53,207 nt of DNA from a virus (lineage: Duplodnaviria > Caudoviricetes), in IMG/VR virus record IMGVR_UViG_3300049174_000048, positions 1 through 53,207 of that record; one strand, given 5' to 3'. Shown piece after piece: positions 1 to 6,223 of the stretch. The notes beneath the pieces are model-generated. The model made no database searches and was not told the origin of the DNA. It saw nothing but the letters and a program-made list of their open reading frames with translations. The stretch's first letter is position 1, and every line of letters begins with the position of its first letter. Both the position numbers and the translations under genes were made by a program.

Positions 1-36
1 AGTTGTTTCAGTATCATACACAAGTGTTAGGGTCAT
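1..36 (-). CDS. N-terminus of probable DnaQ/DEDD-type exonuclease (runs off window)
   Basis: ATG at 36 overlaps the HNH stop (ATGA); reads MTLTLVYDTETT, an ExoI-like D-T-E-T-T motif; only 12 codons visible. Confidence 0.5.
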   Translation of the reverse strand, partial: MTLTLVYDTETT

Positions 37-479
37 GATTTTATCCTTCCGCTTTTAATTATTCGACCAAGCTTGTCGCGCTCATAGATAACAGCCCGTG
101 GTACTCGTCCTTCAATGTTGGCGCGATGTACAGAAGCGCCAATTTGTTGTCGACTTTCTAAGCGATGCTTAGTTCCACACTTGTGATGCTTGTTGTGTGC
201 ATCCTGTGTCGTTACTTCAAGATTATTGTAATCATCATTTAATTTATTTTCATCTATGTGATGTACTATTTCACCTTTGTGAAGCGGTCGGCCTAATTTT
301 ATTGCCATCATTACTCTGCTGCGTTTCTCATAGCAACTACCAAATAACGGTTTGATATTTGGAAACAACCAGTGCGGCTTGAAGACCAACCAGATTCGAT
401 TGTTCTTCTTGAATGATGAAACTACTCTCACGCCACGTGGAAGTATCAATAATACAGCAAGTGGCCGTGTTCTCTTCAT
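33..479 (-). CDS. free-standing HNH homing endonuclease
   Basis: VHHIDENKLNDDYNNL...HNKHH motif; AT-rich relative to flanks; ATGA overlap with dCTP deaminase stop. Confidence 0.85.
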   Translation of the reverse strand: MKRTRPLAVLLILPRGVRVVSSFKKNNRIWLVFKPHWLFPNIKPLFGSCYEKRSRVMMAIKLGRPLHKGEIVHHIDENKLNDDYNNLEVTTQDAHNKHHKCGTKHRLESRQQIGASVHRANIEGRVPRAVIYERDKLGRIIKSGRIKS

Positions 480-973
480 CCCTTGCTTGCCTCCACGCTG
501 CCGGCGCCCTGGTAGCGTCCGGTGTACGGCTTGGCGCACGGCTCGTCCAGCGTGTGGTAGATAATCTGGCCGATGCGCAAGCCGGTGTAGATGGGACGGT
601 GTCGCCAGCGACTGACGTTTTGTATTTCGAGAGTGCCGACGCCGTCCCAGCCAGGATCGAACCAGAACGCCAGCGAGTGATTGTACTTCTCGCGCGCCCG
701 GCTGGACTTCAGCTTGAGCTCGAGCGCCATGTCGACCGGCACGCGTATGCGCTCGAGCGTTGCAGCAAGTATGAATTCGCCCGGTGCCATCATGTACGGT
801 TCACTGCGCCCTGCCAGCTGGACGGTGCGCATGTCGTCGCTGTCCATCTGCTCAATCATGATGGTGTTGCCGACGCGAATGTCGATGCTGGCAGGGTTGA
901 CCAGCGACACGTCAGTGTGACCGACGAACTCCTCGAGTCGCTCGCACAGTGTGCGGTACGACAGAACGCTCAT
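476..973 (-). CDS. dcd: dCTP deaminase
   Basis: NPASIDIRVG, PGEFILAATLE, KSSRAR, FDPGWDG, TLEI and GRYQG motifs of the trimeric dCTP deaminase/dUTPase family. Confidence 0.9.
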   Translation of the reverse strand: MSVLSYRTLCERLEEFVGHTDVSLVNPASIDIRVGNTIMIEQMDSDDMRTVQLAGRSEPYMMAPGEFILAATLERIRVPVDMALELKLKSSRAREKYNHSLAFWFDPGWDGVGTLEIQNVSRWRHRPIYTGLRIGQIIYHTLDEPCAKPYTGRYQGAGSVEASKG

Positions 974-1998: not shown

Positions 1999-2058
1999 GT
2001 CGTCCAACTCCCAAAGTCAACTGCAACCGTTAGCAGAAAATAGTGTGAGCGTAAAGGA

Positions 2059-5000
2059 TCATTTGCACTCGCCCCAGTTGGCGCCGTAGTCGGCATCGAC
2101 CAACACCGGCACCTTCAGCTTGATCGCGTCTGTCATCAAGCGAGTTGCTTCCTGTGCTGCCTGTTCGCCTTCATGCGTTTGCGGCACGCTGTCGTCGAGC
2201 TCGTCATGGATGGTCAGGAGGGGCGCGCCGATGACGTCGCAGATACCGCTCTCCCAAATAATGACCATGGCTTTCTTCATCATGTCCGCCGCGCTGCCTT
2301 GCAGCACGCGGTTGAGCGCCGCGTGCGTGTAGGCACGGCGCAGCCGGTTGGGGTTGCGCAGCAGCTGGCCGTCAGCACCGATGCCGCCGTATTGCTCGAG
2401 TGCTTGCTCGTACGGCAGCCCCGGCGGACGGTGCTCGCCTCCCCAGCGCTTGGGCTCCCACAAAGGGAAGCGCTGCCGGCGCTGCAATATCGTCAGCACG
2501 TAGCCGCGGCGCTGTGCGACGTCTGACGCCGTCTGAAACGTCTTGGCGACAAACGGAAGATCCTCGTCGTACTTGTCGGTGAACAGCTTGGCTTCTTCAA
2601 CCGACTTGCCCATCGTTGCTGCCAGCTTGGGTGGGCCTGCGCCGTATACCTTGCCGAAATTGATGTTCTTGACCAGCTTGCGCACGAACGGATCATTCTC
2701 GTCCATGTTGGCAAGACGCGCGCACAGCTTGTGATAGTCGGTTTTCGGATCTGTGTTGTACTGCTCGCGGCACTCGGCTGCGCCTTTGCCAAGTGCAAAA
2801 TGAGCAAGAAATCTGTATTCTATTTGACTGTTAGATGATATTAAACCATTTTCGAGTACAAAAGTGCGAGCTCTATCAACTGTTATATGATAGACTGGTT
2901 TCTTGCCGATTGGTATTGTTGAAACAACACGATGATTATTGCCCGGCGCACGACCTAGATGCCAACCACGCGGCACACGCTTCAATGTTACTCGTCTGCT
3001 GCGTATACCATTGTGGATCCAATACGTATCGCTGAGATGGCCTTTATTATTGAAGTTGGGATTGCCAACACCTTTATACGAGCGTCGATTTGCGTGTCCA
3101 CCGACCAGCTGTTTAGTCTTTTCTGCGCGTTGCTCAGTAGTGGCTTTGCTCCACCAACGCGCTGCTCCTTGGCCACGGTTCTTACTTACCGGCAGATACT
3201 GCAAATTTCTACGTCGCCAATCTGAAGCATCTCCATTTATGTGATCTACTTCGTGACCATCGGGACACGGTCCATATTCATATTCAGCAACTAAACGATG
3301 AGCATATCGTCGGTTACCTCTAAGCCACCACATTGGATATTTACCTTGTCCTCCGCCAACGTGCGCCAGTCTTGTACCGACTGTCATATTCTTGGTCTTT
3401 ATCTTTGCCCCGTTCAATAGCATCCATTCATGATCACCAGTGCATTTGACTGAAGCACCATTATCCAGTTGCACCAAAAACACTGGCGCCACACCAATGT
3501 ATTTGGCACGTGTCACTTTATTAAATTCCAGCTTGCGTCCGTCTGGTGACGACAGCACCGGCACCGGCTTCAGCACCAGATCTCGCATAGTCTTTATACC
3601 ATCGATGGTGATGATGCGCGTGTCGCCTGTCAAGCAGTAGTCCTTGCGGTGCCAGCGCTCGCCCGGCTCAGGCTCGAACATGCCACGCACCAGCGGCGCC
3701 AGTTCTTCGTCGCGCGCAGGTACATTTTGGAGATTTGGGTTCGAGCTACTGTTATGATGAACTAAACCGCCGGCGCAATAGCTATGGTCTCCTTCTACTT
3801 CGATGTCCCAGACATCAGCTGTTCCCATAAAGGTAATCGTTTTAATCTTCGACGATGTAGTTGTCTGTGGCCGCGCTTGGTGACAATAGCCAAGTTGTCT
3901 AGATCGTTGTTGGAATGATCTCCGTCTATATGATGAACTTCGAACTCTTTTGGTATATTCTTTAACCCTAGTGCTTCGCAAACCACTATGTGCGAGTACT
4001 GTACATAATGACGACCAATCTTCAGAATAGCGTCGCCACTTGAATAACGAAGAATACCCTTGTGGTTGTGATGCAACGCTCCGTTCTTGCCCTTCATAGG
4101 ATTTTTGTCGCCAGTTTTGCTTCGCGAATATCGCAATTTCTTTTCCGCCAGTAGACGAGATTTGTCCACGTCTCTGTGCAGAATAAATATGACTGTTCCA
4201 TATGATACGCTGAGCTCTCTGGCTAATTCGCTTATAGTTGGTCGCGGGTTGCTCAAATAACCACGGACTATCCTGCGGCAAATTTTTGCATTCTTGATGA
4301 TTTGCTTGTTCACCGACATATGAAGTAACCTCATCTCCCACCGTTAAATCTTTTAATGAATACCATCCATTGGGCGTCAGCAGTCTATGCGATTTAGTGC
4401 AAATAACTCTTGATCCGTTCTCTGTCACAACTTCAAACATGAAGTCACGACCCTTATAGTATTTCTTCAATATAAGCCGTTGCTTACCAGTATGAGTTCT
4501 AATTGTATCTCTACCGGAAGGAATGTAATCTTCAATCTTAAAGTCGCCGGATGATGTCTCTAATATAGTATCACCAGCTACGCAAAACCGGGCTATGGTG
4601 CCCTTGGTGTCGTCGCCTGCTTCGTTGTCGGTCTTCAACTGGTTGAATTCGCAGTGTATGCGCCCGTTGACATGGTGACCCAGGATGTGCCCGTCCAGGA
4701 ACACGTTGATGATGGTGTTGACTTTGCGTCCTTCCTGGATGGCGCGCGCCAGTTCGTCGCGCTCGGCCCACACCTTGATCAAGTCCTTGCGTATCGAGTA
4801 GTTGCCCAGCTTGGCAGTCCGCGGCACAGTGAAGCCACGGCTTTCCAGCGCTACTCCCAATCGCGCGGCGTCCATAAGGTCGGCGCCTGCGCCAGCATGA
4901 CTGCGTATGACTTTGAGCCACTTTTCGCGCTCCTCGACGAGCCGTTCGCGTAGGCGAACGGCCCGGTCGAGGTTCACCCTGACCCCGCGCCGCCGCATGG

Positions 5001-5721
5001 CAAGCAGTATGGGGATGAGCCGACTTTCCATGTCGAACAGGTCGGTCAAATTCTCGTCGGCAAGTTTGCGCTCTTGCAGTTCAAGGATACGCAACGGCCG
5101 GTCGACGTCAGCTTCGGCGTATGGACCAACGAACTGCGCCGGCAGGCGCCACAGGTTGCGCTTGACGTCCTTGGACTTGAACCAGCCGAAGCGACTGGCA
5201 GCGTCACGCAACAGGTCTTCATCCTTGCCGGTGCCGAGGTAGTCTTGGCTGAGTGTCTCCAGTCCAAACGACAGACGGTTTTCATCGATCAACGGTTCAG
5301 CGTTCTGCACGTCAAGGAACCGTCGTACGCGCGGGAACGTTACGCCTTCATTCGCCAACCAATCCAGGTCATACAGCAGGTGCGAACCGACGACGTCGCC
5401 CGTGTACGCGTTCAACACGTCACGCGCCCAGTTGAATACCAGTCGTTGATCAAGGTTGAGCGGGTCGCGTTCGTGCGCGAATGGCAGGTACCAGCGGCGC
5501 CCGTCGTTAGTGCCCAACGCCAGCCCTACCATGTAGTTGCCGGGTCGGCGCACGCCTGGACCTAGCTCGGGCAGGTCCATGTCCTTGCATTCGACGTCAA
5601 CAGCCAGCCGCTTGACGCCGTTGAACGCACCAGGGTCAGGGAGTGCGGGCGGGCGCCAGTCGGTTGCCGGCATCAGTAGCGGCAGCTGACGTCCGCCTGC
5701 GTAGTTAGTTCGGCTTGCCAC
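2059..5721 (-). CDS. polA: family A DNA polymerase with 3'-5' exonuclease domain, interrupted by two inteins (spliced length 673 aa)
   Basis: AVDVE exo motif; RF|SSSNPNLQN; motif A DY|SQIEYR; motif B KNINFGKVYG; QGSAAD; motif C TIHDEL. Confidence 0.95.
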   Translation of the reverse strand: MASRTNYAGGRQLPLLMPATDWRPPALPDPGAFNGVKRLAVDVECKDMDLPELGPGVRRPGNYMVGLALGTNDGRRWYLPFAHERDPLNLDQRLVFNWARDVLNAYTGDVVGSHLLYDLDWLANEGVTFPRVRRFLDVQNAEPLIDENRLSFGLETLSQDYLGTGKDEDLLRDAASRFGWFKSKDVKRNLWRLPAQFVGPYAEADVDRPLRILELQERKLADENLTDLFDMESRLIPILLAMRRRGVRVNLDRAVRLRERLVEEREKWLKVIRSHAGAGADLMDAARLGVALESRGFTVPRTAKLGNYSIRKDLIKVWAERDELARAIQEGRKVNTIINVFLDGHILGHHVNGRIHCEFNQLKTDNEAGDDTKGTIARFCVAGDTILETSSGDFKIEDYIPSGRDTIRTHTGKQRLILKKYYKGRDFMFEVVTENGSRVICTKSHRLLTPNGWYSLKDLTVGDEVTSYVGEQANHQECKNLPQDSPWLFEQPATNYKRISQRAQRIIWNSHIYSAQRRGQISSTGGKEIAIFAKQNWRQKSYEGQERSVASQPQGYSSLFKWRRYSEDWSSLCTVLAHSGLRSTRVKEYTKRVRSSSYRRRSFQQRSRQLGYCHQARPQTTTSSKIKTITFMGTADVWDIEVEGDHSYCAGGLVHHNSSSNPNLQNVPARDEELAPLVRGMFEPEPGERWHRKDYCLTGDTRIITIDGIKTMRDLVLKPVPVLSSPDGRKLEFNKVTRAKYIGVAPVFLVQLDNGASVKCTGDHEWMLLNGAKIKTKNMTVGTRLAHVGGGQGKYPMWWLRGNRRYAHRLVAEYEYGPCPDGHEVDHINGDASDWRRRNLQYLPVSKNRGQGAARWWSKATTEQRAEKTKQLVGGHANRRSYKGVGNPNFNNKGHLSDTYWIHNGIRSRRVTLKRVPRGWHLGRAPGNNHRVVSTIPIGKKPVYHITVDRARTFVLENGLISSNSQIEYRFLAHFALGKGAAECREQYNTDPKTDYHKLCARLANMDENDPFVRKLVKNINFGKVYGAGPPKLAATMGKSVEEAKLFTDKYDEDLPFVAKTFQTASDVAQRRGYVLTILQRRQRFPLWEPKRWGGEHRPPGLPYEQALEQYGGIGADGQLLRNPNRLRRAYTHAALNRVLQGSAADMMKKAMVIIWESGICDVIGAPLLTIHDELDDSVPQTHEGEQAAQEATRLMTDAIKLKVPVLVDADYGANWGECK
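2830..3636 (-). mobile_element. intein 2 in PolA motif A with in-frame HNH endonuclease (269 aa)
   Basis: starts CLTGDT, block B CTGDHEW, HNH AHRLVAE...VDHINGDASDWRRRNL, ends GLISSN followed by extein Ser (SQIEYR). Confidence 0.92.
3751..4584 (-). mobile_element. intein 1 in PolA (278 aa); its endonuclease is not in the intein frame
   Basis: starts CVAGDT, block B CTKSHRLL, block F VWDIEVEGDHSY, ends VHHN followed by extein Ser. Confidence 0.92.
3795..4319 (-). CDS. HNH endonuclease with N-terminal HTH, overprinted in the +1 frame inside intein 1
   Basis: TISELARELSVSYGTV (HTH), KTGDKNPMKGK (NUMOD-like), EVHHIDGDHSNNDLDNL...GHRQLH (HNH); GAGGT SD 8 nt before ATG 4319. Confidence 0.85.
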   Translation of the reverse strand: MSVNKQIIKNAKICRRIVRGYLSNPRPTISELARELSVSYGTVIFILHRDVDKSRLLAEKKLRYSRSKTGDKNPMKGKNGALHHNHKGILRYSSGDAILKIGRHYVQYSHIVVCEALGLKNIPKEFEVHHIDGDHSNNDLDNLAIVTKRGHRQLHRRRLKRLPLWEQLMSGTSK

Positions 5722-6223
5722 TGGTGCCTAGCGCTGTCAGCATTGCACTGAAGCTGTCGTGTTGCGGCGCCTGGACGTTGTCCAGCTTGCGCAAATGACG
5801 CAGCTGCCGGTGCACGTCATCGACTGCCGCAGGGCAGTGCGTCGTGCACCAATAGTCTTGCATCCGCATTATCCAATAGATAATCGACTGAACGTGCGCT
5901 TCTTGCGAGAACGGTTTCCACTCGCTTGTGCGTTCGTCCCATAAGACCATGACCCATGGTCGCTGTATGGCCCACTTATAGAAATGGATGCCAACGGGCA
6001 TGACATCACGCTGCGTGGATACCAACATGACCAGATGCGTGGCGCCATACGTCAGGCGCCAGTCGCTGTTGATGATGTATCGTAGGTCGCGTGTGCCTGG
6101 CAGCAGCCACGCCTTGGCAGCAGCGAACACATCGTCCCAGTGCACAAGCGGGAACTTGTCGACGCTGATTGTGAAGCCTTCGATGTTGTGCGCGACGCTA
6201 CGCAGCAGGAACGCGTCGGTCAT
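5705..6223 (-). CDS. hypothetical protein
   Basis: GGAG SD, ATGA overlap with upstream gene, overlaps polA start. Confidence 0.6.
   Translation of the reverse strand: MTDAFLLRSVAHNIEGFTISVDKFPLVHWDDVFAAAKAWLLPGTRDLRYIINSDWRLTYGATHLVMLVSTQRDVMPVGIHFYKWAIQRPWVMVLWDERTSEWKPFSQEAHVQSIIYWIMRMQDYWCTTHCPAAVDDVHRQLRHLRKLDNVQAPQHDSFSAMLTALGTSGKPN

Follow-up and report, generated by a model that had tools for sequence, protein, structure and literature searches.

Inteins whose homing endonuclease is encoded outside the frame of the host protein have been described in several settings. In actinophages, Gosselin, Arsenault & Gogarten (bioRxiv 2025.01.02.630785) report inteins whose endonuclease VII-like nuclease lies "in reading frame 3" and others with antisense LAGLIDADG or VSR-like nucleases, and the portion of that preprint available to us lists HNH nucleases in frame only. 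Phillips, DeSimone & Gogarten (bioRxiv 10.64898/2026.09.14.751524) describe a LAGLIDADG endonuclease encoded by a +2 open reading frame (ORF) within the dnaX intein of cyanobacteria, analysed by frame-specific dN/dS, and in the accessible text credit the idea to Gorbalenya 1998. Two further layouts are the ShiLan insertion in an actinophage DNA methylase, reported as carrying a hidden out-of-frame HNH gene (Arsenault et al., Genes 2025, PMC11855218), and the fractured genes, described as split inteins with a free-standing homing endonuclease gene (HEG) between the halves (Dassa et al., NAR 2009, PMC2677866). Here, we analyse intein 1 of the family A DNA polymerase gene (polA) of the uncultured virus IMGVR_UViG_3300049174_000048 (Caudoviricetes). 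The window is the whole IMG/VR record, a metagenome assembly of 53,207 bp, estimated 95% complete. Our analysis supports the core of an initial annotation made from the sequence alone, namely that an intact intein carries a separate, out-of-frame endonuclease gene and that both frames are kept open.

An HNH gene nested in the +1 frame of intein 1

The following features of the window carry the argument (pLDDT, predicted local distance difference test score):

2059..5721, minus strand: polA (family A DNA polymerase), a single unbroken ORF of 1220 codons (1220 residues) with no stop through both of its inteins; Pfam DNA_pol_A, E 1.5e-46
3751..4584, minus strand: intein 1, 278 codons (polA residues 380-657) between ...TIARF and SSSNPNLQN, from Cys1 to His-His-Asn and then Ser
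4312..4584, minus strand: N-terminal splicing half of intein 1 (residues 1-91), modelled as beta strands at pLDDT 89-97 and alignable with mini-inteins L014 and L019; variability peaks at the third frame-0 (polA) codon position
3868..4311, minus strand: polA-frame linker of intein 1 (residues 92-239), without a stop, unconserved as protein, predicted to be disordered (pLDDT <50) and missing from mini-inteins
3751..3867, minus strand: C-terminal splicing half of intein 1 (residues 240-278), holding the VWDIEVEGDHSY block and His-His-Asn, at pLDDT 86-97 and with invariant columns in alignment A3
3795..4319, minus strand: nested putative HNH homing-endonuclease gene, +1 frame, 174 codons plus a TAG stop (3797..3795) within the intein E-V-E codons
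4328..4332, minus strand: GAGGT Shine-Dalgarno-like motif, 8 nt before ATG 4319, made by the intein GDEVT codons
3864..3998, minus strand: predicted HNH_3 catalytic core, residues 108-152 of the 174-residue product (Pfam match 108-152; model strands 126-130 and 143-147, helix 148-156)

In the polA frame, the intein 1 region matches Pfam Intein_splicing (E 1e-18, 68.1 bits, cutoff 35.8). The residues that define a class 1 intein (Cys1, Thr63/His66, His277-Asn278 and Ser+1) are invariant across alignment A3, which includes the mini-inteins, in line with the intact splicing blocks that the initial annotation had recognised. It had also found no domain in the middle of the intein, and the AlphaFold2 model agrees: residues 1-91 and 240-278 are predicted as beta strands with pLDDT 86-97, and residues 92-239 fall below 50 with almost no secondary structure. 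Mini-inteins align to exactly the two confidently folded halves. Intein 1 is best explained, from sequence and model, as a presumably splicing-competent class 1 intein in an essential phage polymerase gene. A split intein or fractured gene was considered and excluded, polA being one 1220-codon ORF.

In the +1 frame, an ORF of 179 residues runs over 4334..3795 on the minus strand (phase from 4584 - 4334 = 250) and matches Pfam HNH_3 (E 3.7e-11, 42.9 bits against a cutoff of 24.8); the 174-residue product that begins at ATG 4319 (MSVNK...) matches at 3.5e-11. The position of this ATG is conserved among relatives and that of the in-frame upstream ATG 4334 is not. We assigned ATG 4319 as the start because the start position is conserved in all ten aligned nested HNH ORFs (the window and nine loci with complete inteins), where it reads M/V/L-[S/T/V]-[V/I/A/Y]-[N/S]-K, with ATG in six, GTG in three and TTG in one. 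The GAGGT lies at 4332..4328 inside the GDEVT codons, where the initial annotation had placed it, and the coordinates given there all proved correct; a purine-rich GAGG, GGAG or AAGG motif, derived from the intein V-G-D/E-E/K-V codons, precedes the start in the nine relatives too.

All ten ORFs match HNH_3, and the window protein is 39-44% identical to its nine nested homologues. H129, H130, I131, D132, N137, N138, N142, L143, H151 and H155 (motifs HHID, NN, NL and H) are invariant in the ten, among them the His, Asn and His expected of a beta-beta-alpha-metal motif, and the window product keeps all 30 invariant columns of the family. The AlphaFold2 model of the +1 product has a mean pLDDT of 77, with a strand-strand-helix core at 78-91. 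The product had been read as an HTH-NUMOD-HNH protein; its HNH part stands, with the HNH_3 match above cutoff, and the HTH and NUMOD labels fall, no such Pfam family matching at E<=0.01, although the model does show a confident N-terminal helical domain (84-91). The last ~25 HNH codons overlap the structured C-terminal half of the intein, and the HNH tail is of low confidence in the model.

The polA and HNH frames are both open over 525 nt, and the third frame of intein 1 contains 28 stops. When synonymous codons were permuted within the HNH ORF, with protein and codon usage kept, the shuffled versions contained 11.6 polA-frame stops on average and none of 20,000 was stop-free for the window (0-52 of 20,000 at the other eight loci). 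In this phase a polA-frame stop can arise only from a T-ending HNH codon before a codon that starts with AA, AG or GA, and in the window T-ending codons occupy 0/52 positions before such codons vs 43/121 elsewhere. Because no shuffle was stop-free and T-ending codons are avoided at the 52 critical positions, we conclude that the polA frame through the nested HNH gene is kept open by selection.

To find which protein is selected, we compared the frames at nine loci (L030 was dropped as a near-copy of L016). Nucleotide variability in the middle region, taken by HNH codon position, was 0.43/0.35/0.60, with its peak at the HNH third position; in the N-terminal splicing half, taken by polA codon position, it was 0.44/0.32/0.67, with its peak at the polA third position. 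Translated from the same nucleotides, proteins were on average 0.457 identical in the HNH frame vs 0.265 in the polA frame, and the HNH frame was higher in 36 of 36 pairs. Per-frame dN/dS among homologues, which the initial annotation had proposed as a check, was calculated by the Nei-Gojobori method (NG86) for the three closest pairs and gave 0.11 and 0.06 in the HNH frame (third pair saturated) and 1.97, 2.28 and 1.85 in the polA frame, figures that are qualitative, with dS at or near saturation and overlapping frames not independent. Third-frame NG86 values served as controls; for the pair L025/L028 they equalled the polA-frame values, and they are left out of the argument. Altogether, these comparisons indicate that, in the middle of intein 1, selection on protein acts on the +1 HNH frame, apparently without purifying selection on the polA-frame middle. 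The 148-residue stretch between the two predicted Hint-fold halves is best explained as mattering in the polA frame only by having no stop codon. The earlier claim of ~520 nt open in both frames under selection thus holds, by the open 525 nt, the shuffles and the conserved +1 protein.

Taken piece by piece, contigs from four other soil runs, each of a different study, span 3500-4800 and match the window letter for letter without a gap; pieces cross both ends of the nested ORF (X1 3835-4800, X2 3500-4274, X4 4290-4440); these are assembled contigs, not raw reads, and one run may be the window's own source. With polA unbroken and the independent contigs free of gaps, a sequencing frameshift is as unlikely as had been supposed. 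The out-of-frame layout is confirmed as real and no artefact.

Relatives at the same polA site

Searched against a large protein collection, intein 1 in its polA frame found 41 proteins, nearly all PolA with an intein at the same site. A frame-0 motif [S/P]-[H/Y]-R-[R/W]...[E/Q]-Q stands at the expected distance before the C-terminal block in 16 of the 41; read on the proteins alone, without DNA, it would be an out-of-frame shadow of HHID..NN, an indirect sign of the nested gene. In P0001, the nearest PolA of that collection, intein 1 is present and the intein-2 site is empty, reading ...KADYSQVEYRL.

A scan of IMG/VR DNA for the block VWDIEVE[G/E/D]DHS[Y/F] yielded 24 contigs, all of which could be classified (L numbers are our locus labels). 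A homologous HNH ORF lies in the +1 frame in 13, so that the HNH frame is conserved in homologues in the same phase, as the nested gene predicted by the initial annotation demanded. Nine of the 13 hold complete inteins of 278-286 residues (L016, L017, L018, L022, L025, L027, L028, L030, L035); the other four are L026, L031, L033 and L037, the last two cut by the contig end. Six contigs (L015, L020, L021, L029, L032, L036) have instead a DUF559 (VSR-like, PD-(D/E)XK) ORF in the +1 frame, with a DUF559 match in 6/6. Mini-inteins of 132-135 residues make up four (L014, L023, L019, L024), and the remaining one (L034) is an in-frame LAGLIDADG-like intein in a different host gene. Near-copies among the 24 are L016/L030, L014/L023, L019/L024 and L022/L037.

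The DUF559 loci form a sister class of same-site polA inteins, with a nuclease ORF of 320-470 residues on the same strand and in the +1 frame:

DUF559 sister inteins: L005 3125-4447; L006 3215-4228; L007 3239-4207; L029 5987-7042; L032 2860-4032; L036 10139-11323

At each of the sister loci, the host frame was stop-free in 0 of 3000 synonymous shuffles.

Several other loci were observed in passing. The L031 intein is apparently without its first ~30 residues (it reads ...GRMSCWMPVVRKLYRG), and its +1 HNH ORF is intact (224 residues stop-to-stop); it may be a splicing-defective or rearranged copy. At L009 2308-3111, a long ORF other than polA has its second intein, whose junk-like middle holds a nested 96-residue +1 ORF (2621-2911) bearing a LAGLIDADG-like LLGDGNL motif, which may be a decaying out-of-frame nuclease. 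Another HNH-like ORF lies at the window edge (33..539, minus strand, match 168..341; HHIDENKLNDDYNNLEV) and shows weak similarity to the HNH nested in intein 1 (E 9.6e-5).

Among 50,697 phage records, blastn of 3600-4700 gave no match, and tblastn of intein 1 matched only Microcystis phage Mvi-JY20, over the N-terminal 89 residues at 40% identity. Because Mvi-JY20 was the only match, the intein family appears nearly absent from cultured phage records. A motif scan of genome contigs found only two stretches, in a Planctomycetales metagenome-assembled genome (MAG) and an Archaeoglobales MAG. A mini-intein polA contig of 78,677 bases occurs both as an IMG/VR virus (L019) and within a MAG labelled Archaeoglobales (L043), and this double occurrence may reflect a binning artefact or an archaeal virus.

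The second intein of the window's polA is of the ordinary kind:

2830..3636, minus strand: intein 2, 269 codons (polA residues 696-964), inserted at DY/SQIE, with HNH_3 in frame

It sits 38 codons downstream of intein 1, and its in-frame HNH_3 (Pfam E 9.2e-15 at polA residues 805-848) agrees with the in-frame endonuclease originally described there. Intein 2 is thus a canonical layout within the same polA gene as the non-canonical intein 1. Its nuclease and the nested HNH have only the core in common (33% over 48 residues, E 0.003). GC content is 0.426 in intein 1, 0.475 in intein 2 and 0.607 in the exteins.

Origin and proposed action of the nested nuclease

Against the phage records, tblastn of the nested HNH found 41 records, all below 60% identity (best E 3e-17). 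Four of these were opened (Vibrio phage MJW, Acinetobacter phage APK32, Escherichia phage PhAPEC7 and Providencia phage PS3), and in all four the HNH homologue interrupts a family A polymerase gene: in MJW and APK32 it divides polA into two genes, and in PhAPEC7 and PS3 it is annotated inside a joined (intron-containing) polymerase coding sequence (CDS). In these phages and in the metagenomic locus L011, the break, 5-10 codons downstream from where intein 1 is inserted, falls inside RLS(S/G)S.PNLQNI or directly behind it. The free or intron-borne homologues, at a similar GC (0.40-0.42), have 20-33 stops in the frame equal to the window's polA frame, which adds to the evidence that selection keeps that frame open in the window.

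A maximum-likelihood tree was built from 19 proteins, 12 intein-nested HNHs and 7 free or intron-borne ones (L030 and L037 omitted as near-copies; the root is not established). The 12 nested HNHs lie on one side of a branch with 100/100 support, which is compatible with one capture event, and the capture by the intein would, on these sequences, be old and family-wide rather than an event of this genome. The initial annotation had proposed that a free HEG invaded a mini-intein; the same-site mini-inteins and the free and intron-borne relatives fit this part, and it has to be amended in that the capture appears to be old and in that a plain insertion of a free HNH gene would have broken polA, given the 20-33 host-frame stops of its free relatives. 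We also considered that two indels had turned a canonical in-frame HNH intein into this one, but such an origin meets the same obstacle, as the host frame would cross at least 20 stops. Every +1-phase host-frame stop is removable by a T-to-C change in the nuclease gene that is silent, because NNT and NNC are always synonymous, and this may bear on the origin. Because the tree is compatible with a single origin, a rare event would suffice.

These observations can be joined in a tentative scenario, which we regard as possible and less probable than its negation. One HNH lineage specialised on the DNA of the polA motif RLSSSNPNLQN would have occupied that site in three ways: within a group I intron, as a free-standing gene dividing polA, and within an intein, which it would have entered once. 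The +1 phase may then persist since its host-frame stops (NNT before AA, AG or GA) are silently removable; if so, +1 would be a phase that generally permits free homing-endonuclease genes to settle in inteins, and the DUF559 class a second, independent case.

How the locus would act involves one further feature:

3724..3750, minus strand: extein codons SSSNPNLQN directly after intein 1, which with the preceding ...ARF codons are the presumed homing-site region of an intein-less allele

We propose that polA is translated through intein 1, whose 148-residue middle would be carried as a floppy loop and leave with the intein upon protein splicing. Ribosomes would also start independently at ATG 4319, guided by the GAGGT of the GDEVT codons, and make a 174-residue HNH_3 homing endonuclease. 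This enzyme would nick or cut intein-less polA alleles of co-infecting phages near the RF/SSSNPNLQN codons, a target suggested by the insertion sites of HNH homologues, and repair would bring in the intein along with the nuclease gene. Two separate polypeptides from one DNA stretch would thus carry out splicing and homing. Taken as a whole, we hold this mechanism to be highly probable.

Several points weigh against it, in addition to the near-saturated dS mentioned above. Translation, cleavage, target site and ongoing mobility are deduced, whereas architecture, selection per frame, homology and predicted folds were read from the data, and entry of the nuclease gene would have had to leave polA unbroken although its free relatives carry 20-33 host-frame stops. 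The window HNH has the longest terminal branch of the tree (0.85 vs a median of 0.2) and a best identity of 44%, which may reflect fast evolution or relaxed constraint. Its model has only a weak top structural match in the Protein Data Bank (PDB), I-HmuI (1u3e; Foldseek E 0.052, TM 0.27), and a profile of the nested HNH family matched no PDB sequence at E<=0.01. A promoter and terminator scan of 3600-4800 returned 2 promoter-like sites vs a shuffle mean of 1.7, so promoters are no commoner than chance, and 0 terminators.

The alternative that survives best is that the nested HNH of this copy is a silent relic, its ORF intact by inheritance and only the polA frame mattering. The long terminal branch (0.85, with at most 44% identity to any relative) fits this, as do the same-site mini-inteins, which show that the nuclease can be lost. 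On the other side, no stop interrupts the 174 codons of the ORF, against 28 stops in the third frame; the product retains each of the 30 columns invariant in the family, HHID, NN, NL and H among them; and neither the start codon nor the GAGGT is missing. The GC of intein 1 against that of the exteins (0.426 vs 0.607) suggests recent residence in this genome. We consider a relic unlikely.

Less probable still, and in our view very improbable, is a programmed +1 ribosomal frameshift that would make the nuclease as a fusion to the N-extein and the N-terminal half of the intein. Both nuclease classes of the intein family do lie in +1 phase, and the +1 ORF of the window extends without a stop 8 codons beyond ATG 4319 on its upstream side. 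Against this reading stand the start codon at the same alignment position in all ten loci, each with a Shine-Dalgarno-like motif before it, the +1 stops that lie upstream in the N-terminal splicing half (the window's intein has 9, none of them within the ORF), and a region upstream of the start that is unconserved in +1.

An assembly or sequencing error, by which an in-frame HNH intein would have acquired two compensating indels, has in its favour only that the window is a metagenome assembly; it is effectively refuted by the polA frame that no shuffle left stop-free, by the same +1 layout in 13 of 24 related viral contigs and by the gapless contigs of four runs. There is a negligible chance that the insert acts at the RNA level, as a group I intron or similar element with a homing endonuclease gene: the closest named HNH homologues do sit in polA introns (PhAPEC7, PS3), but Rfam gives 0 matches at E<=1 over 2000-5800, thus no RNA family and no group I intron, and the insert keeps the reading frame and has intein splicing residues at its ends. 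Independent translation of the nuclease from within a splicing intein remains the reading we prefer.

Comparison with described systems

The intein kind with an out-of-frame endonuclease is already in print, and the window adds a further member. Like the actinophage inteins of Gosselin et al., as far as the available text describes them, intein 1 has intact splicing halves, a host-frame middle without a fold and an endonuclease in another frame akin to free phage HEGs, and the same origin model, a free HEG entering an intein, is put forward there. The present family differs from that account in its HNH_3 nuclease, its +1 frame, its family A polymerase extein and its hosts (uncultured soil and other viruses). 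VSR-like nucleases of full inteins are antisense only in the same portion of the preprint, whereas the DUF559/VSR-like sister loci found here are on the same strand and in +1. The dnaX intein of Phillips et al. shares, on the accessible account, frames that overlap, a dN/dS that is low for the nuclease and raised for the host frame, relatives that are mini-inteins, and the model of a "secondary invasion"; its nuclease family, overlap phase and host gene are other ones, and its host is cellular and not a phage.

A further parallel is found in Hamiltonella phage APSE-1 (NC_000935), where P45/P46 (L044 3828-6809 and 4133-4555, both minus strand) include a nested CDS, P46, annotated "HNH endonuclease" and in +1 (31808 - 29554 = 2254). 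A family A polymerase is there read through an insert with Cys...His-Asn/Cys ends and a junk-like middle that holds a same-strand +1 CDS, as in the window, but at a different polymerase site and in an unrelated intein sequence. At E<=0.01, Pfam found no Intein_splicing in P45 and no HNH in P46 (weak HTH hits only), "HNH" being the record's own label.

The HNHs of PhAPEC7, PS3, APK32 and MJW are homologous to the nested one (31-37% identity, E down to 3e-17), of the same length and near the same RLSSSNPNLQN point; unlike it, they are intron-borne or gene-splitting and carry the 20-33 stops in the window's polA frame. The ShiLan insertion, as described in the text available, shares an out-of-frame HNH gene and an insertion open in the host frame; it has no detectable splicing domain, whereas the splicing halves are intact here. 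The fractured genes of Dassa et al. likewise have, in the part of the paper seen, an endonuclease gene between two intein halves, but the host gene there is in two ORFs and polA here is continuous.

In the literature searched (supplements not covered), the polA/HNH_3 intein family was not found described. The window leaves the principles of intein knowledge unchanged and provides a well-supported case for a recently characterised class, in which splicing and homing would be carried out by separate polypeptides from overlapping frames. Gene callers will overlook such nested nuclease genes and report a "domain-less" intein middle. Four points go beyond the literature cited. The polA target motif is common with intron-borne and gene-splitting relatives, which is relevant to the view that the nuclease chooses the target and gains a splicing vehicle secondarily. 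The codon-level signature of stop avoidance, with T-ending codons at 0/52 critical positions, offers a simple sequence signature for detecting hidden genes of this kind. The same-strand +1 DUF559 sister class is the third, and the fourth is that canonical in-frame and non-canonical HNH inteins stand together in one gene.

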